Positions 1-53,079 are shown, counted from the first letter of the stretch. The stretch: 64,000 nucleotides of DNA from an uncultured delta proteobacterium (GCA_963745035.1 CAVUVW010000021.1:1-64000); one strand, 5' to 3'. Notes: a model not told the origin generated them from the letters alone. Numbers and translations are program-made.

Positions 1-754
1 GCCTTGGCCCATAACTTTCATCGAAAGCACGCCGATGTCTCTTTGCAGCGCAACCGGCAGGGCGGATTGCTCAAAGGCGGGGATCGGCTCCATTTTGCGC
101 TGCGCGATCGGGTTCGCCGATTGCGGCGGCGTTGAGCGACATCATCACGGTATCGAAGTCGTGGCGCCGCAGCGCCTCGGCCATGGCGACGCCGTCGTTG
201 TGGCCGGTGATGCCGATGAAGCGGACCACCCGTTGTGCCTTGAGCTCTTCGATGGCGGCGATCGCGCCGTTCGAGCCGGACATCCTGTCGAGGTCGGCGA
301 CATTGCTGAGGCTATGGATCTGAATCAAGTCGAGGTAGTCGGTTTGCAATAGCTTGAGGCTTGTCTCGATGGAGCGGAGCGCGCCGTCCCGATCTCGCGG
401 GTCGAATTTGGTGGCGAGAAAGATTTCTTTGCGCCGCTTTCTGGAAAATTCGCCGATGCGCTTCTCGCTCAATCTTTCGATGGGTCGTCGCGTGTAAGAA
501 CTCGCGGTGTCGAAGTAGTTCACGCCGAGGGCAAAGGCGCGCTCCAGGAGCGCCTGGGCCTCGTTCTCATCTTGAATGGAGCAGAAGCGGGTGCCGCAGC
601 CAAAGCCGATGCACGAGACCATTTCGTCGGTCTTGCCCAAGCGGCGCTTCGTCAGGGTGGGTGGCACGGCACTCCAAGCTTTGTCGCCGGCGCCAAGTGC
701 AACGGCAGTGACGGTGGTCTTTAGGAACTCGCGGCGTGACCAATGGGTTTTCAT
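1..754 (-). CDS. Tat-exported aldo/keto reductase; runs off the window edge; frameshift near 125
   Basis: SRREFLK twin-arginine signal; AKR motifs IGFG, NYFDTA.SY, LATK, YLDLIQIH. After NAA a shifted frame continues QSANPIAQRKMEPIPAFEQSALPVALQRDIGVLSMKVMGQG, a typical AKR C-terminal segment. Confidence 0.85.
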
Positions 755-1113
755 GATCGCTCCTTCGTGGTCAAGATACGTGTTGAGAGATCATAGTACA
801 GGTTAAGACCGCTTGAATAGCCGGTTTGGTGGCGCGCCGGATTCGGGTTTGTAGCTCCCGCAATCGAGCCTTGCGGACACTCTCCCTAATTAACGGAGCC
901 GTTTGGCGGCTGCTTATTGCTATCGACTGACTTAGATGCTTCGCTTTTACCAGGATGACGAGTTTTCGCGGTCCTTGACTCAAGTTTACAAATTTGATTT
1001 AGGGCTACAGCGCAAGGACCCACAAAGTCGGGCAGCTATGGAGAAGCAGTTTGAAGAGCAGGCGCTATTCCTTTTTGAAAGATCAACCCAGTCGCATGGC
1101 AAAAGGAGGCTCT

Positions 1114-2100
1114 ATGAAGATTTTTAGCGGCTTACGGCTAATGGTGATCCCCGCGCTTGTGATCTTTCCTCTGCTCCTGCCGCAGTCAAGAGCGCTCGGT
1201 TGGGAGCCCACCAAGCCCATCGAATTCGTCATCCCGGCCGGCACCGGCGGCGGCGCCGATCAGATGGCGCGCCTGATGGCCGGCATCAGCGATAAGCACA
1301 AGCTGGCGCCTCGCGCGTTCATCGTCGTCAATAAGTCGGGCGGCGCCGGCGCCGAAGGGTTTCTGCACGTCAAGGAAAAGAAGGGCGACGCCCACACGAT
1401 CATCATCACGTTGTCGAATTTGTTCACGACGCCGCTCGCGACGGGGACGCCGTTTAGCTGGCGCGACTTCACGCCCGTCGCCCGGATGGCGCTCGACCGC
1501 TTTATTCTTTGGGTAAATGCCGAAACGCCTTACAAGAGCGCCAAAGAATATCTGGCCGCGGTGAAGCAAACGCCGGGTATGAAAATGGGCGGCACCGGAT
1601 CCAAACAGGAAGACCAGATCATTACCGTGCTGCTGGAGCAAAGCCAGGGCGTGAAATTCGCTTATGTGCCGTTCAAGGGCGGCGGCGAGGTATGCACGAA
1701 TCTGGTCGGCAAGCACGTCGACTCGACGGTGAACAATCCGGCCGAGTGCGTCAGCAACTGGAAAGCGAACCGGGTGCGCCCCTTGGCGGTTTTCGATCCC
1801 GAACGCATCCCTGACAAGGATTGGACTGAGATCCCGACGATCAAAGAAGCCCTGGGCGCGAATATCTCCTACAACATGCTGCGCGGTATTTTCGCGCCTC
1901 CCGGCATGCCGAAGGACGCCGTGGATTGGTATGTCGGCTTTCTGAAGAAAGTTTTCGATACTAAGGAGTTTCAGGATTACCTGCACACCGGCGCTCTCAA
2001 GGCCGCGTTCGCCTCGGGCAGCGAGTACACCAAGTGGGTCGAGGAGAACGAGAGACTCCATAAGGAGCTGATGGAAAAAGGCGGCTTGATCGCCAAGTAG
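1114..2100 (+). CDS. tctC: Tripartite tricarboxylate transporter substrate-binding protein (TctC/Bug family)
   Basis: Signal peptide; P.KPIEFVIPAGTGGGAD..AR, VNKSGGAG and VPFKGGG motifs; AGGAGG RBS before ATG 1114. Confidence 0.9.
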   Translation: MKIFSGLRLMVIPALVIFPLLLPQSRALGWEPTKPIEFVIPAGTGGGADQMARLMAGISDKHKLAPRAFIVVNKSGGAGAEGFLHVKEKKGDAHTIIITLSNLFTTPLATGTPFSWRDFTPVARMALDRFILWVNAETPYKSAKEYLAAVKQTPGMKMGGTGSKQEDQIITVLLEQSQGVKFAYVPFKGGGEVCTNLVGKHVDSTVNNPAECVSNWKANRVRPLAVFDPERIPDKDWTEIPTIKEALGANISYNMLRGIFAPPGMPKDAVDWYVGFLKKVFDTKEFQDYLHTGALKAAFASGSEYTKWVEENERLHKELMEKGGLIAK

Positions 2101-2101
2101 C

Positions 2102-2581
2102 ATGCGAGCGCTCAACCTGCTCACGGCCGCGGCGCTGGTGCTGCTGAGCGGCGCCGTCATCAAAGACGCTCTGCGGCTCGGCATCGGCTGGGGAAGCGAA
2201 GGGCCGCAGAGCGGATTCTTCCCATTCTGGCTTGCCGCCATTCTTGCGACGGTGAGCCTGCTGTTGATCGTGCATACTCTGCGCAGCCGGTCGGCGGAAC
2301 CTTTTGTCACTAGGGAGCGCTTTGCGCCGGTTCTCAAGGTGCTCGGGCCTCTGACCGGCTTCGTCGTCCTGACGGATCCACCTGGTCCGTGGCCCGGGCT
2401 CGGCCTTTACGTGGCGGCCGGGCTTTATCTCGCCTTCTACATGCGCTGGGTGGGGCGCCATCACTGGGCCACGGTAGCGGTGCTCGCGATCGCCTTTCCG
2501 GTTCTCACCTTCGTCGTCTTCGAAACCTGGTTTCTCGTGCCCATGCCCAAGGGGCCGGTAGAAACGTGGCTCGGGTACTAG
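2102..2581 (+). CDS. tctB: TTT small membrane subunit TctB
   Basis: Small hydrophobic protein with G...GFFP motif and C-terminal F..W..VPMPKG; lies between tctC and tctA. Confidence 0.88.
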   Translation: MRALNLLTAAALVLLSGAVIKDALRLGIGWGSEGPQSGFFPFWLAAILATVSLLLIVHTLRSRSAEPFVTRERFAPVLKVLGPLTGFVVLTDPPGPWPGLGLYVAAGLYLAFYMRWVGRHHWATVAVLAIAFPVLTFVVFETWFLVPMPKGPVETWLGY

Positions 2582-2584
2582 TCC

Positions 2585-4105
2585 GTGGGCATTGAAAATC
2601 TTCTCCTCGGTTTTCAAGTCGCGATCACTCCGTACAATCTTTTCATCGCCGTGGTGGGAGTCCTTCTCGGCACCATCGTCGGGGTGCTGCCGGGGCTCGG
2701 TGGCGCCAATGGCGTCGCGATTCTCCTGCCGCTCACCTTCACCATGCCGCCAACCTCGGCCATCATCCTGCTCACGTGTCTTTATTGGGGCGCGCTCTTC
2801 GGCGGCGCGATCACGTCGGTGCTTTTCAATATTCCCGGCGAGCCGTGGTCGGTGGCGACGACCTTCGACGGTTATCCCATGGCCAGGGACGGCCAGAGCG
2901 GCCAGGCGCTGACGGCCGCGTTTAGCTCTTCGTTTGTCGGCGCTTTGTTTTCGATCGTGCTGATCACATTTTTCGCGCCGCTGCTGGCCGAGGTTGCGCT
3001 CAAGTTCGGGCCGCCGGAGTTTTTCGCCATCCAGCTCCTGACATTTTCGAGTTTCGTCGGCCTCGGCGGCGGGAGCGCGCTCAAGTCGCTGGCCACGATC
3101 CTCATTGGTTTTATGCTCTCGACCGTGGGGCTCGACATCGTGACGGGCCAGCTCAGACTGACTTTCGGCTTTACCGATCTGATGAAGGGCTTCGATTTCA
3201 TCATCGCGGTCATCGGTCTATTCGGCATCGGCGAGATTCTCCTGAGCGTGGAAGAAGGGCTCCGGTTCCAGGGAGCCAAGACGCAAATGAATCTGCGCGT
3301 GGTGCTGGACACCTGGAAAATCTTGCCGCGCTACTACCGCACCTTCGTGCGCGGCTCGATCATCGGTTTCTGGATGGGGTTCAAGCCCGGCGGCGCGACT
3401 CCGGCGTCGTTCATGAGCTATGCATTCGCCAAGCGCTTCTCGAAAAATCCCGAGCGATTCGGCAAGGGTGAAATCGAGGGCATCGTAGCACCGGAGACCG
3501 CCGCTCACGCCGCCGGCGTCGCAGCGATTCTGCCGATGATCACCCTGGGCATCCCCGGCTCGCCGACCGCCGCGGTGATGTTGGGCGGACTTATCATTTG
3601 GGGGCTCCAGCCCGGCCCGATGCTCTTTATCGATAAGCCCGACTTCGTTTGGGGTCTGATCGCCAGCATGTACACGGGCAACGTCATCGGCGTGCTGGTC
3701 GTCTTGGCGTTCGTGCCGTTCTTCGCATCGATCCTGCGCATTCCGTTCGCGATCCTGACGCCGCTCATCGTCGTGATTTGCGCCGTCGGCTCCTACGCGG
3801 TGCACAACAGCATGATCGACATCTGGTACATGCTGATCTTCGGCGTCATCGGCTACGTCTTCAAGAAACTCGACTATCCACTGGCGCCGCTGGTGCTGGC
3901 GCTCGTGCTCGGCGACATGGCCGAAAACTCGCTGCGGCAAAGCCTGATCATGTCTCAGGGTTCACTCGCGATCTTCCTTACCCGGCCGATATCCGGGTTG
4001 ATTACCGCCGTCGCGATCTTCTTTTTTGTCCTGCCTATGTTGACGCCCTGGTGGCGCAAGCTGAGAGGGAAGCCTCAGCGGAGTACCGCGCCGGCGGAGC
4101 TATGA
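2585..4105 (+). CDS. tctA: TTT large membrane subunit TctA
   Basis: GVLPGLG, NIPGEP...ATTFDGYPMA, GPPEFF, APETA and LTLGIPGS-like motifs; 506 aa polytopic protein. Confidence 0.92.
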   Translation: MGIENLLLGFQVAITPYNLFIAVVGVLLGTIVGVLPGLGGANGVAILLPLTFTMPPTSAIILLTCLYWGALFGGAITSVLFNIPGEPWSVATTFDGYPMARDGQSGQALTAAFSSSFVGALFSIVLITFFAPLLAEVALKFGPPEFFAIQLLTFSSFVGLGGGSALKSLATILIGFMLSTVGLDIVTGQLRLTFGFTDLMKGFDFIIAVIGLFGIGEILLSVEEGLRFQGAKTQMNLRVVLDTWKILPRYYRTFVRGSIIGFWMGFKPGGATPASFMSYAFAKRFSKNPERFGKGEIEGIVAPETAAHAAGVAAILPMITLGIPGSPTAAVMLGGLIIWGLQPGPMLFIDKPDFVWGLIASMYTGNVIGVLVVLAFVPFFASILRIPFAILTPLIVVICAVGSYAVHNSMIDIWYMLIFGVIGYVFKKLDYPLAPLVLALVLGDMAENSLRQSLIMSQGSLAIFLTRPISGLITAVAIFFFVLPMLTPWWRKLRGKPQRSTAPAEL

Positions 4106-4120
4106 GCGTTGCGTCCCACC

Positions 4121-4159
4121 TTGACAAGTGGGCGGTTATTAGATAACTGGTCAGACCAG
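4121..4159 (+). promoter_or_regulatory. TTGACA -35 element followed by a perfect palindrome CTGGTC-A-GACCAG (FadR-subfamily operator)
   Basis: TTGACA at 4121-4126; inverted repeat at 4147-4159 fits the TGGT-N5-ACCA pattern of FadR/GlcC/LldR-type sites, 20 bp upstream of the GntR gene. The -10 element is unclear. Confidence 0.65.
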
Positions 4160-4179
4160 CAGACAGCTGGACCTATCTC

Positions 4180-4927
4180 ATGCTTCACGCCATCAAAAAA
4201 ACCCGGATTCACGAGGAAGTGTTCAGACCAGATCCATGAACTGATCAAGGAGGGCAAGATTCAAAGCCCGAGATCAGCTCCCGTCCGAGCGCGAGCTGGC
4301 CGAAACTTTCAAGGTCAGCCGGACCTCCGTTCGCGAGGCGCTCCGCGCTTTGGAAAGTCCCAGGGGCTCATCGTGAGCCGAACCGGCATGGGTAACTTCG
4401 TCGCGGACTTGCCCGTCGAGTCGTTGGTGGGACCGCTGGCAAGAATGCTGATCGACGAGAAAAAGGCATTGGCGGACGTTTTCGAGATGCGCAAGCTCAT
4501 TGAACCGCATATCGCGGCGTTGGCCGCCGAGCGCGCCACCGAGAGAGATATCGCCGGATTGAAGCGAATCGTCGCTAAACAGGTGGACGCCGTTAACCGC
4601 GGCGAAACCGGCGTCGAAGCCGATGCTGAATTGCATCTCACCATCGGACGGGCAACACAAAACCAGGCACTGCAAAGACTGGTGTCAGGCTTGATGGAGA
4701 TACTGAGCCGCAGCCGTGAGGAATCATTGCAGACCGACGAGCGGCGAGAAGCCTCCATCGACGCGCACCGAAGAATTATCGCCGCCATCGAAAAGCACGA
4801 CAAGACAAGAGCGCGCAGTGAAATGCTGCGCCATATCGAGCAGGTCGAAGAAAGTGTGCTGTCGTCATCCAACCGCCCGGCAAAAAAAGACAGTCAAAAT
4901 CTTGCCAAAGAGAGGAGGATTTCATGA
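4180..4927 (+). CDS. FadR/GntR-family transcriptional regulator (about three indels in the 5' part)
   Basis: Joining frames gives MLHAIKKTRIHEEVF.DQIHELIKEG...DQLPSERELAETFKVSRTSVREALRALE.QGLI (GntR wHTH), then an FCD domain (E.R..IEP, D..LH..I..AT.N, H..I..AI...D). Confidence 0.88.
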
Positions 4928-6123
4928 TCAAGCGCGTCGAGGTCAACTATCGAGGCATCTTTCAGAAGAACCTCGGCAAAAAAATCGGCAGCGACATCGT
5001 CATGATCGCCAGCCGGATGGGCCAGAAAGCTTTTTCCAACGGGCGGTACAGCGATTCTCCGGAAAGAAACGGTATCCCTTGCAAATATTTCGCCTTCGTT
5101 TCTCCCGATCTCGCCGAGGAGGAATTGGAGGCGGAATGCGGCGCTAAGCTCGAGATCGATGAAGCCAACATCTCCATCGTCTTGGACGACACGATGTGCA
5201 AGGGTGTCGAGCCGTGGGGATGGCACGGTATCCGCCCGATCAATGAACGGGTGGTCAAGGACGGCTGTCTCCTGGTGGTGTCCAAGAAAACACCGGAAGA
5301 GCTGTTAAAATTCATCGGCAAGAAGCCGTACAACTATCGCATTGCAATACTCGACGGCGACGCCAGTCTCGCCGGCCTTTGGGTCAACAAGGATGACATG
5401 ACCCATGAGCACATCTTGGGCGGCATCGCGGCCATCGATCCGACACTCATCAGCATCGAGGCGGTTGAAGCTTATCTGATGGACAAGACAAAGCAGAAGC
5501 ACCGTGTTGAAGCCGCGCGCGCGGCATTCGAGTCGCTCAGACAGGAGGCTAAGCCTCCTAGGGTAACGACCGTGACACCAGAAGACGGAATTGTGTGGAT
5601 GCATGAGATACCCGTGCTGCCCAAGTGGTTCGAGATGCAAGAGGGAGCTGTAGTTCCGGCTGTGAAGCGCGGTTTCGAAATGGGCCCGAGGGGACAAAAC
5701 AGAAACCCCGGCTTCAAGCGCGGCACGACCAAGACGCAGAGACCCGCGGTCAGATTCGATCTCTGCACCAAGTGCACGCTCTGCTGGGTCGAGTGCCCGG
5801 ACGAGTGTTTCGATCCAACCACGGACGGCTTATACGACATCGACTATCAGTACTGCGTCGGCTGCGGCAAATGCGCTCAAGTATGTCCGGTCAAAGAATG
5901 CATCGTCATGGTGGATGAGCTCCAATTCAAGGACGACTCGAGTCCGTGGGAACACTGGAAAAGGGATTCCAACGACTACATTCAGTGGGTAGAGGACAAA
6001 AAGGGCAAAGACCGGGTTTCTTACCCCTTCGTCACCGGCAAGGGTTTGACCGTTACTCAGGGAGATGTGATGCCTGAGGGCAAGATAGTGCCCGTGAGAA
6101 AAACCGAGGAGGTCGAAGTATGA
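4924..6123 (+). CDS. 2-oxoacid:ferredoxin oxidoreductase gamma+delta fusion, OOR delta-like
   Basis: N-terminal gamma-like domain (Y.DSPER.G.P); two CxxCxxCxxxCP ferredoxin motifs; ELQFKD resembles the end of Moorella OOR delta (from memory); ATGA overlap with the regulator. Confidence 0.85.
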   Translation: MIKRVEVNYRGIFQKNLGKKIGSDIVMIASRMGQKAFSNGRYSDSPERNGIPCKYFAFVSPDLAEEELEAECGAKLEIDEANISIVLDDTMCKGVEPWGWHGIRPINERVVKDGCLLVVSKKTPEELLKFIGKKPYNYRIAILDGDASLAGLWVNKDDMTHEHILGGIAAIDPTLISIEAVEAYLMDKTKQKHRVEAARAAFESLRQEAKPPRVTTVTPEDGIVWMHEIPVLPKWFEMQEGAVVPAVKRGFEMGPRGQNRNPGFKRGTTKTQRPAVRFDLCTKCTLCWVECPDECFDPTTDGLYDIDYQYCVGCGKCAQVCPVKECIVMVDELQFKDDSSPWEHWKRDSNDYIQWVEDKKGKDRVSYPFVTGKGLTVTQGDVMPEGKIVPVRKTEEVEV

Positions 6124-7361
6124 GTGTCGCACTCGCAACAGCCAAATCAGATCAATCAGGGGTATACGAACGAGAAGATCTCTTAAACGGCTGCCAGGCC
6201 GTCGCCCAAGGTGTGTGTCTCGCCGACGTGGACGTGATCGCCGCTTATCCGATACGTCCCTACACCGAAGTGATGGACGCCCTCTCGAAGCTGATCGCTG
6301 ACGGGAAATTCGACGCCGAGTATATCATCGCCGACAGCGAGCATTCCCAGTTCGAGATCGTCAAGCACGCCAGCTCGGTGAACGCGCGCGCCTTCGGCGG
6401 TTCGAGCGGCACGGGCTGGATGTACGGTATGGAAGCGCTGGTCGTTACCGCGACCGACCGTCTTCCGCCTCTTTTCGTGGTCGGCAACCGCGCTTTGGAT
6501 GATCCCGGCGCTTTCGGCGTCGAGCACAACGACGCGATGTCGGTCCGCGACATGGGCTGGCTTCTCTGCTGGGTCACAACGCCGCAGGAGGCGCTCGAGC
6601 ACGTGCTGATCGGCTACCGCATCGCCGAGGACAAGACAGTCAGGATGCCGATGGGATTGGCGATGGACGGCGCCTTTCTCACCCACTCGCAACACATGGT
6701 CAAAATCCCATCGGTGGAGGCGGCGAAGAAATTCCTGCCGCAGTACGATCTCGCCGAGCGCCGGCTCCATCCCGACAACCCGATCTCGGTCGCGCCGCAG
6801 GCCAACGAGGATTGGGTCATGGAGATCCGCAGGCAAAATTGGGAAGCCGCCAAGCGCGCGCGCGGTGTCATCAAGGATGCTTATAAAGAATTCAACGATA
6901 TTTTCGGCGATCGCTACGCCGCGCCTTACTATTTCGACGAGTTCATGACCGAGGACGCGGAAGCGGTCCTGATCGGCGTTGGTACGGTGGCGGCTCCGGC
7001 GCGCACGGCGGTCAGGCGCTTGCGCGAGAAGGGACAGAAAGTCGGCTACGTGAACCTGCGCTGGTTCCGGCCATTCCCGACGGTGGAGCTGCGCGAGTCC
7101 CTGAGCCGCTTTAAAGCGGTCGGCGTCGTCGATCGGGACTTCGCTCACGGCTCGCCCGACAATTGCGGCATCTTGATGCACGAAGTCCGATCCTGCCTCT
7201 ATCCGGCGAAGAACCGGCCCGCAATCGTCAATTTCATGGGTGGTTTGGGCGGGCGCGATCTGTCGATTGCCGACGCTCAGAAGATGTTCGAAATCACCCA
7301 ACAGGCGGCGAAGAAAGATTCCCTGGATGAATACGTAACCTGGATCGGCCTAAGAGAGTAA
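6120..7361 (+). CDS. 2-oxoacid:ferredoxin oxidoreductase alpha subunit, OOR-like
   Basis: GC.AVA.GV.LADVDVI..YPIRPYT (YPIRP rather than PFOR YPITP), SEH, TPQEAL, RWFRPFP, GGLGG. Confidence 0.88.
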   Translation: MSVALATAKSDQSGVYEREDLLNGCQAVAQGVCLADVDVIAAYPIRPYTEVMDALSKLIADGKFDAEYIIADSEHSQFEIVKHASSVNARAFGGSSGTGWMYGMEALVVTATDRLPPLFVVGNRALDDPGAFGVEHNDAMSVRDMGWLLCWVTTPQEALEHVLIGYRIAEDKTVRMPMGLAMDGAFLTHSQHMVKIPSVEAAKKFLPQYDLAERRLHPDNPISVAPQANEDWVMEIRRQNWEAAKRARGVIKDAYKEFNDIFGDRYAAPYYFDEFMTEDAEAVLIGVGTVAAPARTAVRRLREKGQKVGYVNLRWFRPFPTVELRESLSRFKAVGVVDRDFAHGSPDNCGILMHEVRSCLYPAKNRPAIVNFMGGLGGRDLSIADAQKMFEITQQAAKKDSLDEYVTWIGLRE

Positions 7362-7376
7362 ATAGGAGAAACCATT

Positions 7377-8372
7377 ATGTCGACTGTACCGACAATCGAT
7401 TACGAAAAGGTCAAAGGCGTTCACAAAATTCCCCTGGAAGAGCTCTATACTTCCGGCCATCGTACCTGCCAGGGCTGCGAGTCGGCGACGACCATGCGCG
7501 GCTTCATCAAGGTTGCGGGTTCGCGCTCGGTGGTCACGGGAGCGACCGGTTGCATGTACGTGGCCAACACTTCGTACATGACCACGCCGTGGATCGTGCC
7601 GTGGATGCACACGCAGCTCGGCGCCGGCGGCTCTTCGGCCGTGGGCATGGCTGCGGGCCTGCGAGCGCTCAAGCGCAAGGGCAAGATCAAAGACGAGAAG
7701 ATCAACGTCATCAACTTCTCCGGTGATCTCGGCGCCGGCGATATGGGCATCGGCGGCATCTCCGCGGCGTTGCAGAGCGATTACGACTTGCTGATTATCA
7801 TGTACGACAACGAATCGGCCGCCAATACCGATATCCAAGCAACAGGCTCGACGACTTACGGCGCGCAGACGACCTTCACGCCGCCGGGGACCAAGCATCC
7901 GATCATGCAGAGGCGCTGGAAGAAAAACGTTGCCGGCATGCTGGCCGTCGGCCATCCGACCTGCCGTTACGTTGCCACTGCCTGCGCCACCTTTCCGCCC
8001 ACGGATTATCTAAACAAGGTCCAAAAGGCGCTCGCCATCGGCGGCCCGACCTTCATCCACACCTACGATCCCTGTCCAAAGGGGTGGGACTATCATCCCC
8101 GCTACTCGAACGAGCTTGGCGAGTTGGGAATCAAATGCGGGATCTATCCGCTCTACGAGGTCGTGGACGGCAACGTCATTTACACCTGGGACGCGCGCAA
8201 GACGGGCAAAGGCCGCATTCCGGTCAAGGAGTTTATCTCCAAACAAGGGCGCTTCGATCATTTGAAAGAAGAACACTACGCGCATATTCAAAACATGGTC
8301 GATCAAATGTGGGAAGAATGGCAGATCCCCGGTGTCGCGCCATTGCGAGGGATTCTGAAGGCTAGGATTTAG
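7377..8372 (+). CDS. 2-oxoacid:ferredoxin oxidoreductase beta subunit, OOR-like
   Basis: GHRTCQGC, TGCMYVANTSY, ThDP motif GD.G...YDNES, TTFTPPG, GHP..YVATA, PCPKGW. Confidence 0.88.
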   Translation: MSTVPTIDYEKVKGVHKIPLEELYTSGHRTCQGCESATTMRGFIKVAGSRSVVTGATGCMYVANTSYMTTPWIVPWMHTQLGAGGSSAVGMAAGLRALKRKGKIKDEKINVINFSGDLGAGDMGIGGISAALQSDYDLLIIMYDNESAANTDIQATGSTTYGAQTTFTPPGTKHPIMQRRWKKNVAGMLAVGHPTCRYVATACATFPPTDYLNKVQKALAIGGPTFIHTYDPCPKGWDYHPRYSNELGELGIKCGIYPLYEVVDGNVIYTWDARKTGKGRIPVKEFISKQGRFDHLKEEHYAHIQNMVDQMWEEWQIPGVAPLRGILKARI

Positions 8373-8389
8373 CCTATAAATAAATTGTC

Positions 8390-8424
8390 CACGGAATCCG
8401 CGGGAAAAGCCGGCGGATTCCGTG
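8390..8424 (+). terminator. Stem-loop after the oxidoreductase operon
   Basis: CACGGAATCCGC ... GCGGATTCCGTG 12-bp stem; no U-tract. Confidence 0.45.
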
Positions 8425-8761
8425 TAACCTTGCCGGGAATCCCACTGACTCCTTCGGCGAAGCTTGGCGAGATCTGACGATCGGTTCAGGAGTGCGCCTT
8501 GAGCGCCTAGTCGGGATTTTGTATGGTGAGCAGAATAACGAGGCTTAAGAGTCCAGTAATAGAGCTAACTCGGTGAAGGAAAGCGTTGTTTGCCTAGCAT
8601 CCTGCCGGTAAAGCCACCTGATCTCGTTTTCAGCCTCTAAGCGGGAAAGATCGCGCTACGCTGGAGAGCTACGCGCGCTACCATGTCGCTACATTGGGAA
8701 GCCCTCCCGATAAGCGGCTATAATAACTAGAGTTACGGATCTTCGAATCAGGGAGGGACTT

Positions 8762-10482
8762 ATGGCAACCCCAAGCAGCAGCGAAGGAAAGAAGGAAGCG
8801 ACCGGTCCGGTGATCTCCGGCGGCCACCTTGTCGCCAAGGCGCTCAAGAACGAGGGCGTGGAGGTGATTTGGACGCTGTGCGGCGGCCATATCATCGATA
8901 TCTACGACGGCTGCATCGACGAGGGCATCAAGATTATCGACGTGCGCCATGAGCAAGTCGCGGCCCACGCGGCCGACGGCTACTCGCGCCAGAGCGGCAA
9001 GATCGGCTGCGTCGTCACGACCGCCGGACCAGGCACAACCAACGCGATGACCGGCATCGCCAATGCGTATCGCGCCGAGAGCCCGCTCTTGATGATCGGC
9101 GGGCAGGGCGCGCTTTCAGCCAGCACAAGATGGGCTCGCTGCAAGATCTGCCGCACGTCGACATCATGTCGCCGATCACGAAGTTCGCCGCCACCGTGCC
9201 GCACACCGAGCGGATCGCCGACATGGTGTCGATGGCGTTTCGCGAATCGGTCAACGGCGCGCCCGGTCCGAGCTACCTGGAAATCCCGCGCGACGTGCTC
9301 GATGCCAAAGTGCCGCTCGAGCGCGCGCGCATTCCCAAACCGGGCGCCTACCGCGCTTCGACCAAATCCGTCGGGGATCCGAAAGACATCGAGAAGCTTG
9401 CCGATCTTTTGGTCAATTCACAAAAGCCGGCGGCGCTCTTTGGTACGCAGGTGTGGACCAGCCGCGGCCACGATGCGGCGGTGGAGTTCTGCCGCGCGCT
9501 CAATGTGCCCGGCTACATGAACGGCTCGGGGCGCGGTATTTTTGCGCCGGGTGATCCGCACGGCTTCAATCGCACGCGCAGCATGGCATTCGACAAAGCC
9601 GACGTGATCTTGATCGTCGGCTGTCCGTTCGATTTCCGTCTCGGCTACGGCCGGCGGCTGCGCGCCGATGCGACCGTCGTGCAGATCGATCTCGACTATC
9701 GCAACGTCGGCAAGAACCGCGACGTCTCGCTCGGCCTCGTCGGCGACTGCGGCGCGATTCTCAAAGCCGTGGAGCAAGCCGCCAGCGGCCGCGCGTCGAA
9801 AGGCAATGCGCAGCGCGCCGAGTGGATGAAAGAATTACGCGCGGCGGAAGCCAAGGCCTACGAAAAGCTTCTCCCTTCGTTCAAGTCCGAATCGACGCCG
9901 ATCAATCCTTACCGGGTCGCCTATGAGATCAATGAATTCTTGACCGACAACACGGTCTATATCGGCGACGGCGGCGATGTCGTGACGATCACCGCGACGG
10001 CCGTCGAGCCGCGCAAAGCCGGCAACTGGATGGATCCGGGCCCGCTCGGCACTCTGGGCGTCGGCACGTCGTTCGCGATGGCGACCAAGTTCGTGCATCC
10101 GAAAAAAGAAGTGCTTTGTTACTACGGCGACGGATCATTCGGCATGACCGCATGGGACATGGAGACCGCGCAGCGCTTCGGCCTGCCGTACATGGCCGTG
10201 ATCGGCAACAACTCGGCGATGAATCAGATCCGCTGCGGCCAGATCGGCAAATACGGGCCAGAGCGCGGCTGCATCGGCAACAAGCTCGGCGACGTCGATT
10301 TCGAAAAATTTGCCGAGTGCTTCGGCGGCTGGGGCATCGCCGTGCGCGACCCCGGCCAGATTCGCCCCGCGCTCGAAAAAGCGCGCGAGCGTGTCGCCGG
10401 CGGTCAATGCGCCGTCGTGAACATCTGGGTCGACATCAATGAATACGCGCCGGGCACCAAGGCGCAGACGATGTACAAATAA
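8762..10482 (+). CDS. ThDP-dependent enzyme, oxalyl-CoA decarboxylase/2-hydroxyacyl-CoA lyase-like (frameshift near 9119)
   Basis: VRHEQ.A.HAADGY, TAGPG.TN, DPGPLGTLGVG, GDGSFG...NN; two ORFs join as GGQGALSQHKMGSLQDLPH; directly upstream of frc; TATAAT at 8719-8724 and GGAGG RBS. Confidence 0.8.
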
Positions 10483-10509
10483 GAGTCGCCGCGAAAACTT
10501 CGGAATGTG

Positions 10510-10575
10510 TCCCGCAAAGGCGCCAAGGCGCAAAGATTTAGATTCCGAACTTCGCGTCTTTGCGCCTTTGCGGGA
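10510..10575. repeat. Intergenic palindromic element built from CGCAAAG(G) units
   Basis: TCCCGCAAAGGCGCCAAGGCGCAAAG ... CTTTGCGCCTTTGCGGGA inverted arms. Confidence 0.7.
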
Positions 10576-10610
10576 TAAAAATCCGACTCTTCTAAGGAGA
10601 CGATGATTCG

Positions 10611-11852
10611 ATGGGAAAAGCTCTCGATGGCATCCGCATCCTCGATATGACTCACGTGCAGTCCGGTCCGACTTGCACGCAACTTCTGGCCTGGTTCGGC
10701 GCAGACGTGATCAAGGTCGAGCTGCCGGGGCGCGGCGATATTACACGCGGCCAGCTGCGCGACAAACCCAATGTCGACAGCCTCTATTTCACCATGCTCA
10801 ATTGCAACAAGCGCAGCATCACGCTCAATACGAAGACCAAAAAGGGCAAAGAAATATTTCGCGAGCTGGTTCGCCGCTGTGACGTGCTGGTGGAAAACTT
10901 CGCGCCCGGCGCGCTCGACCGTCAAGGTTTCACTTGGGAGGCCATTCAAGGACTGAATCCGCGGATCATTTATGCTTCCGTCAAAGGCTTCGGGCCCGGA
11001 CCGTTTGAAGATTGCAAGGTGTATGAAAACGTCGCCCAGTGCACCGGCGGTGCCGCCAGCACCACCGGGTTCGACGACGGGGCGCCGCTTGTTACCGGCG
11101 CACAGATCGGCGACTCAGGCACGGGAGTGCATTTGGTCGCGGGCATTCTCGCGGCGCTTTTTCAGCGCGAAAAGACCGGCAGGGGACAGCGCGTCACCTG
11201 CGCCATGCAGGATGCCGTGTTGAATCTTTGCCGGGTCAAGCTGCGCGATCAGCAGCGGCTCGCGGCGGGACCGCTGACGGAGTATCCGCAGTATCCGAAT
11301 GGAGTTTTCGGCGATGCGGTGCCACGTGCCGGCAACGCTTCAGGCGGTGGACAGCCGGGATCGGCGGTGCGCACTAAAGGCGGCGGGCCGAACGATTACA
11401 TCTACGTCATTATTCAGCCGGTGGGCTGGGAGCCGTTGATGAAGCTCTGCGGCCGGCCGGAGTTGATCACGGATCCTGAGTGGGCGACCCCCGAAGCGCG
11501 ACTGCCCAAGCTCGACAAATGTTTCGAGCTGATCGAGAAGTGGACGATGACCCTCGATAAATTCGAGATCATGCGCCGGCTCAATGAGCATGACGTGCCG
11601 TGCGGGCCGATCCTCGATATGCGCGAGATCGCTCAAGAGCAATCGCTGCGCGCGACCGGAACGGTCGTCGAAGTGGATCATCCGAAGCGGGGGAAATTCT
11701 TGACGGTCGGCAACCCGATCAAGCTCTCGGATTCGCCGACCGAAGTGAAGCGCTCGCCGTTGTTGGGCGAGCACACCGGCGAGATATTGGAATCTGTTCT
11801 CGGGTTAGACGACGACGAGATAGAAGAGGCGCAAAACGAGGGCGCCATCTAA
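10611..11852 (+). CDS. frc: Formyl-CoA transferase (class III CoA-transferase)
   Basis: [50 protein letters not shown], catalytic Asp in [10 protein letters not shown], glycine loop [10 protein letters not shown]. Confidence 0.93.
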
Positions 11853-12058
11853 GCAGTACTCCAGAGGCGACAACTTTGCTTGCGCGCCGTGTATCTTCAC
11901 GGTTCGAATTTTTATCGGATCCGATTGCAGTAAGAAGTTTTCAGTTTGTCCTGAGCATCGCCGAAAGCTCGAATGACAATCGAGACTTGAGGTGTCATGC
12001 CGAATGCTCGGCTGATGACTGGCCAAACTGTGAACATAGCCGATTCTCGGAGGCGTAG

Positions 12059-14179
12059 ATGAACAAAAAGGCTTTTCGCACCACGATCAACTCCGCTCTG
12101 GCCGCCGGCCGCCAAGCTTTGAGCGCGCCCGAGGCGCAGCAATTATGCGACGAGTACGGCATTGCAACGCCCAAGCAAGGATTGGCTACAACCGCTGCGG
12201 ATGCGGCGAAACTCGCCGCACGGTTCGGTTTTCCGGTCGTTCTCAAAATCGTCTCGGACGATATTCTGCACAAAACCGAAGCGGGCGGTGTGATCGTCGG
12301 ACTCGGCAATGCAGCCGATGTCCGGGGCGGTTTCGATCAACTCGTCAAGAACGCCAAACGCTACAAGAAAAACGCGGGCATTCAGGGTGTTCAGGTACAG
12401 CAGATGCTGAAAGGCGGCCAGGAAGTCATGGTCGGCGCCGTGACCGACCCGAGCTTCGGCAAAATGATCGCCTTTGGCATCGGCGGCATATTGGTCGAAG
12501 TGATGAAGGACATTACCTTTCGCATGGCGCCGGTCGGCAAGAAAGACGCCTTGTCGATGCTCGATTCGATCGGCGCCGCTCAAGTGCTGCGCGGGGTGCG
12601 CGGCGCCAAAGGAGTCGACCGCGCGGCTCTGGCCGATATCATCGTCAAAGTTTCCAAGCTGGTGAACGATTTCCCGGAAATTCACGAAGTCGATCTGAAT
12701 CCGATCTTCGCGACGGAGAACGGCGCGCGCGCCGTCGATGTGCGCATCGTCATCGGCGATAAGCCGCAAACGCGCCAGCGTTTCGATCAGAGAGAGATTC
12801 TCGCCGCCATGCAGCGCATCATGAATCCGCGCTCGGTGGCCGTGATCGGCGCTTCCGCTGAAGACGGCAAGATCGGCAACTCGGTGATGAAGAATCTCAT
12901 CAACGGCGGTTATCAAGGGGCGATCTATCCGGTCCATCCGAAAGCTCAGGAGATCCTGGAACGCAAGGCCTATCCCAGCGTGCTCGACGTCCCGGGGGAA
13001 ATCGACGTCGCGGTGTTCGCCATCCCGGCGAAGTTTTGCGCTGCGGCGATGGACGAAGTGGGGCGGAAAAAAATTCCCGGTGCCGTGATGATTCCCTCGG
13101 GCTTCGCCGAAGTCGGCGAGCAGGCGCTGCAGGATGAGCTTCTCGGGGTGGCGCGCAAGCACCAAGTGCGCGTGATGGGGCCGAATATTTACGGGTTTTA
13201 CTACACGCCGCAAAATCTCTGCGCGACCTTTTGCACGCCGTACGACGTCAAGGGCAAGGTTGCGCTCAGCTCGCAATCGGGCGGGGTCGGCATGTCGATC
13301 ATCGGTTTTTCACGGACGACGCGCATGGGAGTTTCGGCGATCGTCGGGCTGGGCAACAAGTCCGATCTCGACGAGGACGATCTGCTGACCTACTTCGAGC
13401 AGGACGACAACACTCAAGTGATCGCCATGCACTGCGAGGATTTAAAAGACGGCAGATCCTTCGCCGAAGTGGCAAGTCGCGTCTCGAAAAAGAAACCCAT
13501 TGTCATGCTCAAGGCGGGACGAACAGCACTGGGCGCGCGGGCCGCGGCGTCGCACACCGGCGCGCTGGCGGGAAACGATAAAATATATGACGATGTTCTG
13601 CGCCAGTGCGGCGTCATTCGCGCCAAGAGTTTGAACGACATGCTGCAGTTCGCCCGCGGCCTCCAAGTGCTACCGACGCCGAAGGGCGAGAATATCGTCA
13701 TCATCACCGGCGCCGGCGGTTCGGGCGTATTACTGTCGGACGCCTGCGTCGATAACGGTTTGGCGCTGATGAAAATGCCCCCGGACATGGACGCCGCATT
13801 TCGCAAATTCATCCCGCCCTTCGGCGCTGCCGGAAATCCGGTCGACATCACCGGCGGCGAGCCGCCGACGACCTACGCCAACACCATCCGCTACGCCCTG
13901 GGCGAGCCGCGCATTCATTCTTTGATCCTCGGCTACTGGCACACGATCATCACGCCGCCGATGGTGTTCGCCAAGCTGTGCGCCGAGGTCGTCGAGGAAG
14001 CGCGTGCCAAAGGTATCGACAAGCCGGTGGTGGCCTCTCTGGTCGGCGACGTACAGGTGGAAGAGGCGAGCGAGTATCTTTACGAACGAGGAATCGTTGC
14101 GTATCCGTACACGACGGAGTTGCCGGTCGCGGTGCTCGGGGCGAAGTACAAATGGGCGCGTGGGGCGGCGGTGATGTAG
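12059..14179 (+). CDS. ADP-forming acyl-CoA synthetase (ACD family), ATP-grasp domain first, then CoA-binding/ligase domains
   Basis: FPVVLKIVS.DILHKTEAGGV, DLNP; then PRSVAVIGAS, GPN, SQSGG, phospho-His motif ASHTGALAG, NPVD. Confidence 0.88.
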   Translation: MNKKAFRTTINSALAAGRQALSAPEAQQLCDEYGIATPKQGLATTAADAAKLAARFGFPVVLKIVSDDILHKTEAGGVIVGLGNAADVRGGFDQLVKNAKRYKKNAGIQGVQVQQMLKGGQEVMVGAVTDPSFGKMIAFGIGGILVEVMKDITFRMAPVGKKDALSMLDSIGAAQVLRGVRGAKGVDRAALADIIVKVSKLVNDFPEIHEVDLNPIFATENGARAVDVRIVIGDKPQTRQRFDQREILAAMQRIMNPRSVAVIGASAEDGKIGNSVMKNLINGGYQGAIYPVHPKAQEILERKAYPSVLDVPGEIDVAVFAIPAKFCAAAMDEVGRKKIPGAVMIPSGFAEVGEQALQDELLGVARKHQVRVMGPNIYGFYYTPQNLCATFCTPYDVKGKVALSSQSGGVGMSIIGFSRTTRMGVSAIVGLGNKSDLDEDDLLTYFEQDDNTQVIAMHCEDLKDGRSFAEVASRVSKKKPIVMLKAGRTALGARAAASHTGALAGNDKIYDDVLRQCGVIRAKSLNDMLQFARGLQVLPTPKGENIVIITGAGGSGVLLSDACVDNGLALMKMPPDMDAAFRKFIPPFGAAGNPVDITGGEPPTTYANTIRYALGEPRIHSLILGYWHTIITPPMVFAKLCAEVVEEARAKGIDKPVVASLVGDVQVEEASEYLYERGIVAYPYTTELPVAVLGAKYKWARGAAVM

Positions 14180-14187
14180 TCACGGTC

Positions 14188-14236
14188 CCGTTTCAATCGT
14201 TCGTTCCAGTGGTTCCAATCGTTCGCGCGTCGTTCT
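14188..14236. repeat. Degenerate GTTC(C/A)A tandem array
   Basis: gtttcaatc gttc gttccagtg gttccaatc gttc immediately after the ACD stop codon. Confidence 0.55.
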
Positions 14237-14300
14237 GAGGCACGCAGGAAAACTTGTTCTTTCGTGCTCTGCGTGTCCGGGTGGTGATGCCAGTGAAGGC

Positions 14301-15449
14301 TCACCGATACGCTTCCTCAGGCATATTGAAGGCTGCGCCTTCCTTCGCCAATTGTTCCTGGAACATCTTGCGGATATGCGGGTCCTCGTCGCGGTATTCG
14401 ATGGTGTGGCCGCCTTCTTTGATGTCGAGGTTCAAGCCCCACCAGTCTTTTCCAGGAATACCCTTGACCCGCCTCGGGTAGCCGCCGAGGAAGGCGAGCA
14501 CGCGCAAGGGCTCCTTGGATGCGCCGAAGTGACCGTGAAACCATCCTGCGTCGCCTGGCGCAGCGCTCACGATGCCGCCGGTCTTGTAGTCCTGCCGAAC
14601 TACTAAATTGCCTTTGCCGTCTTTCCACGGCGTCGTCCCTGCTTCACCCGGCCAGGTGATCGTGTAACCCTTGCCGCCCAAGCACAGCAGCACCGGGCCG
14701 GCTTCATGTGCGTGACATCGCGAATAGCGACCGGGCGCGTATTGCGCGATAAATCCCTGAAAACTATTTCCCGACAGGCTCCAGAAGAAAGTTCGATGGC
14801 CCACGCCGCGCTGACCATCGACCGGCAGCTCGACGCGATCGGCATCAGGAATGATATTGCCGTAGTTGCGCGCGCGGCCGTGGCGCGGATCTTTGCCGAG
14901 CTCGCTATGCGCTTTGAAATAATCCGCGCTGCCGTCGTAGCGGTCCTTGAATTGATACGGATTATTGAACAGCGCATCTTGGGTCCGGTAGAGATGAAAG
15001 ATCGGTGGCGCGTTAGTCACGCCGACTAAGAGAGCAGGGCTGGAGGTCGCGTTAACGATGCGGTGCCAGGTGTTAAGCGGCGGGGAGAAAAGGCTTCCCG
15101 CCTGCCACTCGAAAGTTTGCTTCTTGTTCGAGTCATCGCCGCTCCAGATCTCCGTCGTGCCGCGCCCTTCGAGCACATAGAAGATCTCCTCGTACATGTG
15201 CTTTTCCGGCGTAATCGCGCCGGCGCCAGGCACCTCGATTACGTACACGCCCTGGAGTCCGCCGCAGCCGTTGAGCTCGATGAACGCGCCGCGTGCGCCC
15301 ATGCGTTTCCACGGTCCCAACGTGAGTTCGCGAACATCGTAGAAACCCACCGCGCCGCGATGGATGGGAAGATTTTGCTCCTCCATGTAAATTTCATAGG
15401 GGCTGGCCTGCCGCACCCAGCGTTTGGTACCGACGAAGTCTTGCTCCAT
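14301..15449 (-). CDS. Bicupin protein, function unknown
   Basis: Two cupin modules: EKHMYEEIFYVLEGRG...PPLNTWH and CHAHEAGPV...WFHGHF. Confidence 0.75.
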   Translation of the reverse strand: MEQDFVGTKRWVRQASPYEIYMEEQNLPIHRGAVGFYDVRELTLGPWKRMGARGAFIELNGCGGLQGVYVIEVPGAGAITPEKHMYEEIFYVLEGRGTTEIWSGDDSNKKQTFEWQAGSLFSPPLNTWHRIVNATSSPALLVGVTNAPPIFHLYRTQDALFNNPYQFKDRYDGSADYFKAHSELGKDPRHGRARNYGNIIPDADRVELPVDGQRGVGHRTFFWSLSGNSFQGFIAQYAPGRYSRCHAHEAGPVLLCLGGKGYTITWPGEAGTTPWKDGKGNLVVRQDYKTGGIVSAAPGDAGWFHGHFGASKEPLRVLAFLGGYPRRVKGIPGKDWWGLNLDIKEGGHTIEYRDEDPHIRKMFQEQLAKEGAAFNMPEEAYR

Positions 15450-15493
15450 GTAATTGTCTCCTTCGACTTGTGGGAGTACGCTCGTCTCACAGG

Positions 15494-15523
15494 AAGGTAT
15501 TCGCTAACCGTTCATTGTGTCAA
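15494..15523 (-). promoter_or_regulatory. Sigma70-type promoter for the bicupin gene
   Basis: Minus strand TTGACA-18 bp-TACCTT. Confidence 0.55.
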
Positions 15524-15529
15524 CACCGA

Positions 15530-15922
15530 CTAGCGCGTCCAGAACGGCATCAGCGAATAGAACAGCAGAGGAATCGCCAGTACGGGTACGATCCAGACGA
15601 GTGCTAGCGGGATTTTCCGAGTGAGACTTTCTGGCAGAAGCGTGGCGAGCACCCCAAGCGCGGCGGCACCGAGGATCGAAGAGGCCGTCCAACCGTACCA
15701 GTACATAACCGGACCTTCGCCCTGGCGCGGCGGCGCATGGAACCACTCCAGCCGGTTGGTCGCAGGATGATACGTAAAGAGCGGCCAGCCTGCCATGTCG
15801 CAGAGCACGTAAAGCGCCGCGGTGGCGAAGGCGAACACGACAGCAAAGGTTTTAAACTTCGTGGACGAAGCGAGCGACTTCGACTTGCTCATGCCCTGCG
15901 TTGCATCAGTAGTCGTGCTCAT
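15530..15922 (-). CDS. Small membrane protein (about 3 TM)
   Basis: Hydrophobic segments with PLFTYHP and GPVMYWYGW; ATGA overlap with the upstream gene. Confidence 0.7.
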   Translation of the reverse strand: MSTTTDATQGMSKSKSLASSTKFKTFAVVFAFATAALYVLCDMAGWPLFTYHPATNRLEWFHAPPRQGEGPVMYWYGWTASSILGAAALGVLATLLPESLTRKIPLALVWIVPVLAIPLLFYSLMPFWTR

Positions 15923-16426
15923 GATCCGAACCCGCGGACGTTGTTGACGACCTTGCCGACGAGAAAGATGAACCAGCACGCTCCGGCAAGATAAACGGTC
16001 ACCCATTTGCGGGTGCTGCTATATTCCGCGTTCTTGGAATTTTTCCAAAGATACCAATAAATCGGCAGCAGTCCGAGCCCGATGGTGGCGAGATGCTCCT
16101 TCATCTCGAAGGAACCTTGCGTCTTCCAGTAGCCCGCTTGCTCGATGGGAATGCGGACGTAGATGCGATACTCAGTGTAGATCCACGCGCCGAAAACAAA
16201 GGTTGATAACCCAGAGCACGCAGACGGCGGCGGCGTAGCCTGCGCCCTCTACCGCACGGAAGCGGGTGGCGAAACCGGCATCTGCGGCCCGTTGGCGCAC
16301 CGGCATGAGCACCGACATCGCCTGGTGCGTGAGCGCGCCCAGGAGCCCGATCGCCAACAATCCATGGATGATCAGCAAGATCGTCCAGTACGTGTTGATC
16401 GAGATGTACTCGAGTACGAAGTCCAT
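15919..16426 (-). CDS. Membrane protein (about 4 TM); frameshift near 16204
   Basis: MDFVLEY...HGLLAIGLLGALTHQA joins TFVFGAWIYTEYRIYVR...FEMKEHLATIGL; the 508-nt span is one base too long. Confidence 0.7.

Positions 16427-46396: not shown

Positions 46397-46404
<8 letters not shown>
45697..46404 (+). CDS. purQ: FGAM synthase glutaminase PurQ
   Basis: [34 protein letters not shown]. Confidence 0.96.
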
Positions 46405-48631
<2,227 letters not shown>

Positions 48632-52911: not shown

Positions 52912-53079
52912 GGGTTTCCTCCTTGGAACAGCGCCAACATATGCGATGGTTCGGACACGGTCAACGTGGACAGTCTGACGTTCAATGAGCCACAAATCGA
53001 CCGCGCGCCGGCTTGAAGAATTTGCACGTGTGGCATAAGTAGGCGGAGCGCGTCGCTCTGGCGCTCGGGAGGAGAAACC

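Follow-up and report, generated by a model that had tools for sequence, protein, structure and literature searches.

Two described routes of oxalate breakdown resemble the gene cluster reported here, which occupies positions 1,114-14,179 of a 64,000-nt stretch of DNA from an uncultured delta proteobacterium (GCA_963745035.1 CAVUVW010000021.1:1-64000; this whole stretch is called the window). The first is the oxalate oxidoreductase (OOR) of Moorella thermoacetica (MtOOR; EC 1.2.7.10; PDB 5C4I, 5EXD and 5EXE), a 2-oxoacid:ferredoxin oxidoreductase (OFOR) which reportedly works without CoA. The second is the pathway of Oxalobacter formigenes and of the E. coli frc-oxc genes, in which formyl-CoA:oxalate CoA-transferase (Frc) is paired with the thiamine diphosphate (ThDP) enzyme oxalyl-CoA decarboxylase (Oxc); oxc and frc are adjacent in E. 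coli. Two other enzyme groups were used for comparison, namely the 2-hydroxyacyl-CoA lyases/synthases (HACL/S; PDB 8VZA-8VZK and 6XN8; AcHACL, 7PT1) and the ADP-forming acyl-CoA synthetases (ACD) of archaea and bacteria. According to PMC11271303, both the OXC and the HACL families make or use formyl-CoA, and a clade of HACL homologues without predicted biochemical function is also described. A precedent for an acid-CoA ligase in an oxalate pathway is the AMP-forming oxalyl-CoA synthetase of Methylobacterium extorquens, as given in PMC7154664.

The window contains genes resembling both routes side by side. We consider, with moderate confidence, that they form a dual-route oxalate-utilisation locus of two separable modules in an aerobic-capable soil bacterium. 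One module comprises a tripartite tricarboxylate (TTT) transporter, a regulator and a three-subunit OFOR, and the other a ThDP enzyme, Frc and a fused ACD. When the region was searched against Pfam and NCBIfam, all genes of the initial annotation were recovered at the coordinates given below, and both motifs quoted there (YPIRP and TGCMYVANTSY) were found again. The genes are co-oriented, all on the + strand; they fall, however, into two units parted by a hairpin and a 390-nt spacer. Four points limit our confidence to this level: Asp116 of MtOOR has no counterpart in the enzyme, none of its OOR scores reaches threshold, the ThDP enzyme does not qualify as a canonical Oxc, and the two modules are separable. 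The initial annotation knew of no described system with this combination, and none was found in the literature searched, nor was any description of the OOR-like clade or of its combination with frc (subscription papers may say more). In PMC12188714 and PMC13098242, the passages on the enzyme just cite the Moorella work.

When the OFOR was compared with MtOOR, the same subunit plan was observed, with a fusion of domains III and V, an alpha subunit of domains I-II and a beta subunit of domain VI in identical gene order, at about 43-49 % identity. The alpha subunit (6120..7361, + strand), which carries YPIRP and the switch loop ALDDPGAFGVEH, scored 327 bits against MtOOR alpha (5c4i_A) and 209 bits against the alpha chain of a four-subunit pyruvate:ferredoxin oxidoreductase (PFOR; 9bt4_B). 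For the beta subunit (7377..8372, + strand; ThDP and proximal cluster), the corresponding scores were 267 bits (5c4i_C) and 169 bits (9bt4_C). The best NCBIfam model was that of OOR for each of the three subunits; PorA and PorB models also matched, at 324 and 259 bits, and for alpha and beta the OOR models and structures outscored the PFOR ones by 50-118 bits. In the alignment to 5c4i_A, YPIRP corresponds to alpha residues 43-47, and the equivalents of Arg31, which stands where YPITP has Thr, and of Arg109 are kept. The beta motif TGCMYVANTSY is shared with MtOOR beta and not with the PFOR beta chain of 9bt4. PMC5020499 describes YPIRP as unique to MtOOR and places the negatively charged oxalate at Arg31, which together with Asp116 is called central to a bait-and-switch mechanism.

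YPIRP, Arg109 and an altered switch loop were invariant (12/12) in the window and in 11 relatives of 78-92 % identity, which were picked from 120 homologues listed, preferring those with source names or on long contigs. A wider set of 40 full-length alpha representatives (about 370-420 residues) was drawn from the first 78 of the best 150 matches in a search against representatives of 50 % identity clusters, leaving out fragments and fusions of about 700 residues. Only three of them (P0121, P0126 and P0128) contain PIRP; among the other 37, whose top model was PorA-type, 36 have PITP and one has PIPP. P0128 scored over the OOR cut-off (583>500), and P0121 (399 bits) and P0126 (385 bits) under it. 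In a quick maximum-likelihood tree of the alpha subunit (51 rows; 11 of the window clade and the 40 representatives), the 14 PIRP rows formed one group (SH-aLRT 99), in which the order of nesting runs from P0128 via P0126 and P0121 to the window clade (support 100). A phylogeny of all three subunits had been suggested in the initial annotation as a check; ours covers alpha only, and alpha falls with OOR. These comparisons place the OFOR in the OOR lineage and not with PFOR or the 2-ketoisovalerate enzymes (VOR), and the window sequences form a distinct, highly conserved clade within that lineage. The earlier designation as OOR-like is upheld to that extent; it does not extend to the equivalog cut-offs or to Asp116. 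Every source name among the homologues listed reads 'pyruvate ferredoxin oxidoreductase' or is similarly generic, and this naming is very probably wrong.

The third OFOR subunit, gamma-delta (4924..6123, + strand), comprises domain III, a ferredoxin domain V with two [4Fe-4S] clusters and a clade-specific C-terminal tail. By sequence, the ferredoxin part alone was recognisable, aligning to 5c4i_B up to the last residue of that chain. An AlphaFold2 model was built from 21 orthologs out of 68 loci with a full open reading frame (ORF); L073 was dropped because of an internal stop. The mean predicted local distance difference test (pLDDT) value was 60, with 74-95 across most of residues 1-230 and less than 50 in the ferredoxin part and the tail. 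The top Foldseek matches of the model, over about 340-360 columns, were MtOOR delta chains with E values between 2e-15 and 5e-13, followed by PorC-type gamma subunits (TMt 0.78-0.79). Since the top matches cover domains III and V of MtOOR delta, the modelled subunit is taken as a III-V fusion of the MtOOR kind. Its N-terminal RGIFQKNLGK aligns with RGVVMNKDAR of MtOOR, and we read it as free of the Gly-rich GGQG-type stretch that CoA-using gamma subunits presumably carry. The tail extends 62 residues past the end of MtOOR delta (residues about 338-399; window 5935-6123) and is conserved across phyla, with SPWE..., KKGK and VTG.G as kept stretches; no structural claim is made for it because of the low pLDDT there. 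In the PFOR of Desulfovibrio africanus, a C-terminal extension shields the enzyme from O2. At one Vicinamibacterales locus (L076:8801-11197), the gamma-delta frame continues for 798 codons into alpha, which may be a fusion or a sequencing error.

In the second module, frc (10611..11852, + strand) scored over both curated cut-offs (PRK05398, 710.7>442 bits; TIGR03253, 693>504 bits), and its product shares 61 % identity with E. coli K-12 Frc along the full length of 413 residues. No other gene in the whole genome matched over the cut-off. These profile matches identify the product as a true formyl-CoA transferase, in agreement with the initial annotation. As with frc and oxc in E. coli, the gene has as its direct neighbour one for a ThDP enzyme, here a member of the OXC/HACL superfamily (8762..10482, + strand). 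The Oxc-like label given earlier to the latter gene does not stand for Oxc proper, as the identity to E. coli Oxc is 25 % and the Oxc tyrosine is missing. Judged from profile and structure searches, the enzyme is not a canonical Oxc and is a superfamily member nearer to HACL/S; its best structure match was HACL/S (198 bits, over residues 1-432 of the C-terminal piece), and the NCBIfam HACL model was second best. Unlike HACL/S, the window type of ThDP enzyme is always paired with an oxalate-type Frc.

The third gene of this module encodes a fused ACD (12059..14179, + strand; ATP-grasp, then CoA-binding/ligase domains). All five expected Pfam domains (ATP-grasp_5, CoA_binding_2, CoA_binding, Succ_CoA_lig and Ligase_CoA_2) scored over their cut-offs in one chain. 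This five-domain fused architecture is shared with archaeal and bacterial ACDs and with the thaumarchaeal 3-hydroxypropionate- and 4-hydroxybutyrate-CoA ligases. Its alignment with archaeal ADP-forming 3-hydroxypropionate-, 4-hydroxybutyrate- and acetate-CoA ligases is colinear for about 690 residues, with all matches below cut-off (453-552 bits vs equivalog cut-offs of 1200-1300 bits). Unlike the Frc/Oxc pathway, the locus has no antiporter gene, and the TTT importer and the ADP-forming ligase are found instead. We know of no description of an ACD beside frc, no literature search having been aimed at that pairing.

Two extra bases near 9114-9120 divide the ThDP gene into two ORFs (8762-9520 and 9130-10482). 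Six of six aligned relatives, all intact, do not have these bases; the intact ortholog at L018:2737-4449 encodes 570 residues. When contigs of four public sequencing runs (X1, X5, X10 and X15) were aligned to the window, the X1 contig at the break was found without the two bases (depth 5.91/5.91; a 699-nt contig with five other differences), as were the X15 contigs (4.09/4.09). In X10, one contig omits two bases and another omits 1+1 (together 6.99/6.99), and in X5 no omission was seen at a depth of 2-7. The genome assembly (7.43 Mb, 28 contigs, 92.6 % complete, 5.8 % contamination) contains no fewer than five further ThDP genes and five genes for CoA-transferases that are broken across different frames. 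In the window, purL is split into two ORFs (46397-47323 and 47330-48631; 308 and 433 aa), and an aldo-keto reductase (71-754, - strand) ends after about 165 of 291 profile positions. The split purL, the cut reductase and the many broken genes suggest an indel-rich assembly. We read the ThDP frameshift as a probable assembly error, or else a private lesion, and not as a lineage feature; in nature the gene is probably intact. A second pair of this kind is present in the genome (G000:C26:31197-35009), in which a ThDP enzyme (614-aa frame) is followed by a family III CoA-transferase scoring 276 bits to the Frc model, below cut-off.

A one-genome-per-species scan with the patterns YPIRPYTE and EYI[IV]ADSE gave 528 stretches, of which 465 encode a relative. 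Synteny was counted by tblastn with the window proteins in the best 80 of the 465 loci, and loci with an alpha gene at least 85 % identical to that of the window were called close. The order gamma-delta, alpha, beta was kept in 80/80 loci, as far as the contigs reach. The gene of the regulator, which carries an FCD domain, was present in 46/80 and lay directly upstream of the OFOR genes in 29/29 close loci that have 1 kb or more of sequence on that side, and in 14/31 distant ones; tctA (at least 50 % identity) was near the OFOR genes in 17/80. From the second module, frc was found within 10 kb of the OFOR genes in 11 of these loci, the ThDP ortholog in nine, the ACD gene in five and a bicupin gene in three. 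Of the 21 close loci whose downstream flank reaches 3 kb or more, seven have the ThDP-frc pair beside the OFOR genes, with frc always behind the ThDP gene; the ACD gene comes after frc in five related loci. Independently of these, in three acidobacterial loci (L040, L041 and L055), frc stands alone, divergent, upstream of the FCD gene. Co-location of the named genes is thus more than chance (80/80 for the OFOR order, 11/80 for frc), and the two modules came together repeatedly. As true Frc is rare, being single-copy here and missing from most relatives searched, such repeated adjacency is unlikely to arise by chance.

Members of the OFOR clade share 75-100 % identity and come from Binatia, Acidobacteriota, Chloroflexota, Armatimonadota, Gemmatimonadota and other groups, and TTT importers and FCD regulators accompany them across phyla. 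The nearest named records to the window are metagenome-assembled genomes (MAGs) of Candidatus Binatia. OFOR was found in 9/151 sampled genomes of the class, including six of eight other members of the window's family and 2/17 of another family (55-57 % identity). The genes around the OFOR on Vicinamibacterales chromosomes are unrelated to those here (Pfam scan of 12 loci, 77/105 ORFs, leaving out ORFs that overlap OFOR and some small ones). Alpha genes of 92-97 % identity also occur on 4-7.5 kb contigs of MAGs named Pseudolabrys, Nitrospira and Udaeobacter (L003, L007 and L012). These placements could be mis-binning or recent transfer, so that long contigs are the safer basis for counting phyla. 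At L001, identity to the window is 99-100 % for the OFOR genes and only 93-95 % for ThDP and frc, which fits recombination between the modules or a chimeric contig. AMP-forming acyl-CoA synthetase genes adjoin the OFOR genes at L027:12425-14371 (labelled Binatia), L041:12234-13826 (labelled Acidobacteria) and L049:6241-7893 (labelled Gemmatimonadetes), and could encode oxalyl-CoA synthetases.

The importer is encoded by tctC (1114..2100, + strand; periplasmic binding protein, Pfam TctC 101.9 bits), tctB (2102..2581, + strand; small membrane subunit, TctB 62.5 bits) and tctA (2585..4105, + strand; large membrane subunit, TctA 511 bits); all three families scored over their cut-offs and the genes are adjacent. 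The tctC frame opens at 1051, yet a Shine-Dalgarno sequence (AAGGAGG) lies directly 5' of the ATG at 1114. The GntR/FadR-type regulator that follows (4109..4927, + strand) has an FCD (FadR C-terminal) ligand domain (97.8 bits), and its NCBIfam matches to LldR, PdhR and GlcC are weak. Regulator and gamma-delta genes, and gamma-delta and alpha genes, overlap by 4 nt, and the remaining gaps among the first seven genes are 1-15 nt. Because the genes from tctC to OFOR beta touch or overlap, they are read as a single seven-gene operon (1114-8372). Right after the beta stop codon lies a G+C-rich hairpin with a 12-bp stem (8390..8424; -27.2 kcal/mol, z -4.26, with none of 200 shuffles as good), the probable end of the first transcription unit. 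It was listed by the terminator scan for the minus strand only, because there is no T-run on the plus strand. With this hairpin and the 390-nt spacer before the ThDP gene, two units (1114-8372 and 8762-14179) are proposed and not one. A consensus scan for promoters and terminators gave no more sites than shuffled sequence (3 vs 5.4 and 13 vs 16.2), and the Rfam scan of 1-16000 (E<=0.1) gave no riboswitch in the spacer.

In the proposed working of the locus, the TTT transporter would import a small carboxylate, most likely oxalate, which the FCD regulator would sense. The OFOR would oxidise oxalate to two CO2 without CoA and pass two low-potential electrons to ferredoxin or flavodoxin. In the second module, Frc would transfer CoA from formyl-CoA onto oxalate, and the OXC/HACL-family enzyme would decarboxylate the resulting oxalyl-CoA and regenerate formyl-CoA. 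The ADP-forming ligase may prime or replenish the labile thioester pool at the expense of ATP, and formate from the Frc/ThDP cycle would go to the formate dehydrogenase of the genome, whose alpha subunit scored over cut-off (807 bits). Oxalate is proposed as the common substrate because the arginine of YPIRP is kept, because the OFOR shares a clade with true OOR and because an oxalate-type Frc is adjacent in two phyla; this CoA-transferase is the sole substrate-specific neighbour of the OFOR. Observed here are the genes present, their family placement and motifs, the fold, the synteny counts and the fact that the two modules can occur apart; inferred are the action of the OFOR on oxalate, its independence of CoA, the direction of the reactions, oxalyl-CoA decarboxylation by the non-canonical ThDP enzyme, and what the ligase does. 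Four COX1 matches in the genome imply that the host can respire oxygen, and the O2-exposed lifestyle suggested in the initial annotation is supported by these aerobic respiration genes. The hosts of the clade have terminal oxidases and are, unlike that of MtOOR, not strict anaerobic acetogens; TTT and FCD genes, and sometimes frc, are the neighbours of their OFOR genes.

Several observations weigh against this dual-route reading, and they are considered here with the alternatives that they favour. The OFOR missed the cut-offs of the NCBIfam equivalog models NF045790-NF045792 (OxalOxreddelta, OxalOxredalpha and OxalOxredbeta) with all three subunits (alpha 373.1<500, beta 332.7<590, gamma-delta 93.6<230 bits), and a profile search of the whole genome gave no OOR match above cut-off. 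The switch loop reads TLDPPGDFGEEH in MtOOR and ALDDPGAFGVEH in the window, with the core TLDPPGDFG in MtOOR and P0128 and ALDDPGAFG in the window clade. Asp116 is replaced by Ala in 12/12 clade sequences, and an Asp stands three positions earlier in place of Pro113. Domain III could not be recognised from its sequence (E 0.19 to MtOOR delta and no Pfam POR match), and the N-terminal half of gamma-delta, searched alone, gave no significant sequence match in PDB; the identification comes from the fold search alone. Because Asp116 is missing, oxalate is offered as an inferred substrate of the OFOR only. An enzyme of the OOR lineage that has shifted to glyoxylate, oxamate, mesoxalate, hydroxypyruvate or another small polar 2-oxoacid, possibly with CoA, while the CoA module handles the product or a related acid, would account for the sub-threshold scores, for the loss of Asp116 throughout the clade and for a domain III and C-terminal tail that are strongly unlike MtOOR. 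It would also suit the scarcity of Frc among OFOR-bearing relatives and the recurrence of acid-CoA ligases beside the OFOR genes (L027, L041 and L049). However, YPIRP with Arg31 and Arg109 is retained, the number of acidic residues in the switch loop is unchanged (DD..A in the window clade vs D...D in MtOOR), and the only specific hint of a substrate nearby is Frc, the acceptor of which is oxalate. The gamma-delta N-terminus, as read above, also speaks against this alternative. We regard such a shift as unlikely, though it is the most probable of the alternatives. An ordinary CoA-dependent pyruvate or 2-ketoisovalerate:ferredoxin oxidoreductase is very improbable; the public names of close homologues (among the matches listed) are generic or pyruvate-type and PorA/PorB models do match, but PIRP is found instead of the PITP of 36/37 PFOR/VOR-like representatives, the enzyme groups with true OOR, and PFOR models and structures score lower.

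The dual-route reading is also weakened by the second module and by its linkage to the first. Identity between the ThDP enzyme and E. coli Oxc is no more than 25 %; the ortholog has NNSAMN where E. coli Oxc has NNGGIY, with Asn in place of Tyr. This tyrosine is presumably the counterpart of Tyr497 of the M. extorquens enzyme. According to PMC7154664, conserved Tyr497 and Ser568 of M. extorquens OXC position the protonating water, and kcat drops to 1.3 per second in the Y497A variant, compared with 98 per second otherwise. The ortholog also reads SLQD where Oxc has DYEE, and the C-terminal lid (TESGH in Oxc) differs. It fell below all curated cut-offs (L018; PRK05858 433<587, HACL NF058623 326<600, Oxc PRK09259 232<557 bits), and the C-terminal piece in the window scored 158<739 bits against the Oxc model TIGR03254. 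The nearest solved structures are HACL/S (8vz*, 198 bits), with three canonical Oxc structures at 109-119 bits, and no canonical Oxc was found in the genome (best match 297<739 bits). In addition, no operator-like word is shared between 755-1113 and 8373-8761 (exact 11-mers, 13-mers with one mismatch, 15-mers with two, T.GT...AC.A and 6-bp inverted repeats). The adjacency of OFOR and frc, the conservation of which was to be looked at according to the initial annotation, is recurrent yet facultative. It recurs in the seven close and three acidobacterial loci named above, whereas seven of eight OFOR-bearing class relatives (96-100 % complete) are without Frc; the eighth, G016 of the same genus, has a true Frc arranged as in the window. 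Four of five further OFOR-bearing genomes are also without Frc, and the fifth has it 160 kb from OFOR. Conversely, G150 (same genus) has adjacent ThDP and frc genes and no OFOR match at E<=1e-120. As the modules are found apart in relatives, they are considered separable. The closeness of the ThDP enzyme to HACL/S, its missing tyrosine, the lack of a shared operator-like word and the separate occurrence of the modules would be expected if the co-location were incidental and the second module were a 2-hydroxyacyl-CoA lyase or other formyl-CoA pathway unrelated to the OFOR substrate, and the hairpin, the 390-nt spacer and the identity contrast at L001 point the same way. Set against it are the adjacency of frc and OFOR in two phyla in differing arrangements, the rarity of true Frc, which makes repeated adjacency unlikely by chance, and the 61 % identity to E. 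coli Frc, which argues for oxalate as the CoA acceptor. We judge an incidental co-location less probable still than a shift of substrate, and the dual-route oxalate locus is preferred to both.

Among the exudates of plants and fungi, oxalate is a major one, and by oxidising it bacteria drive the oxalate-carbonate pathway of soils. The genes on which surveys of oxalotrophy are based are frc and oxc. Should the OOR-like clade oxidise oxalate, many abundant soil lineages without cultured members would count as oxalate consumers overlooked by such surveys; seven of the eight class relatives with OFOR are devoid of Frc. The enzyme, known so far from a strict anaerobe only, would in that case have a counterpart that is widespread among oxygen-respiring bacteria. 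With Asp116 relocated, the locus amounts to a natural experiment on the bait-and-switch mechanism. The uncharacterised OXC/HACL-family enzyme tied to Frc is of interest for one-carbon biocatalysis based on formyl-CoA. A bolder proposal, which we put forward only tentatively, is that the OOR-type clade provides a main route, so far unnoticed, by which oxalate is mineralised in oxic soils, that its loop and tail are adaptations to O2-exposed cells, and that in this lineage a parallel branch of a non-canonical oxalyl-CoA decarboxylase, Frc and the ADP-forming ligase splits oxalate between low-potential electrons and formate/formyl-CoA.

Beyond the ACD gene lies a bicupin gene (14301..15449, - strand; Pfam Cupin_2 and Cupin_1), a recurrent neighbour of the CoA module whose orthologs (88-92 % identity) adjoin that module in L005 and L021. 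A 37 % relative is found upstream of the FCD gene in L019. The bicupin was considered as an oxalate decarboxylase and rejected, as neither NCBIfam nor PDB gave such a match; the PDB search returned nothing beyond a weak match to auxin-binding protein. Between the ThDP gene and frc there is a long imperfect palindrome (10500..10584; -51.4 kcal/mol, z -8.9). In 4/4 runs its summed contig depth was 97-271, with many loose ends and back-joints, a pattern that looks like that of a repeated element of soil metagenomes; no second copy was found within the window. A match of the palindrome to Rfam mir-5366 in the scan mentioned above (38.6<73 bits) was treated as spurious. The palindrome is not needed for the two-module model.

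With a likeness of 93-99 %, contigs of the RNA library X15 cover parts of the alpha, beta and ThDP genes, and the ACD gene at its 3' end; this is no evidence of transcription in this organism. A PanE/ApbA-family reductase is encoded 38 kb from the locus (51913-52995, - strand); PanE2, the oxalyl-CoA reductase of M. extorquens, belongs to the same family. The rest of the window consists of chromosomal housekeeping and assorted catabolic genes, among them a class II ribonucleotide reductase, PNPase and purine genes, and also includes two luciferase-like monooxygenases and one DAO-family oxidase.

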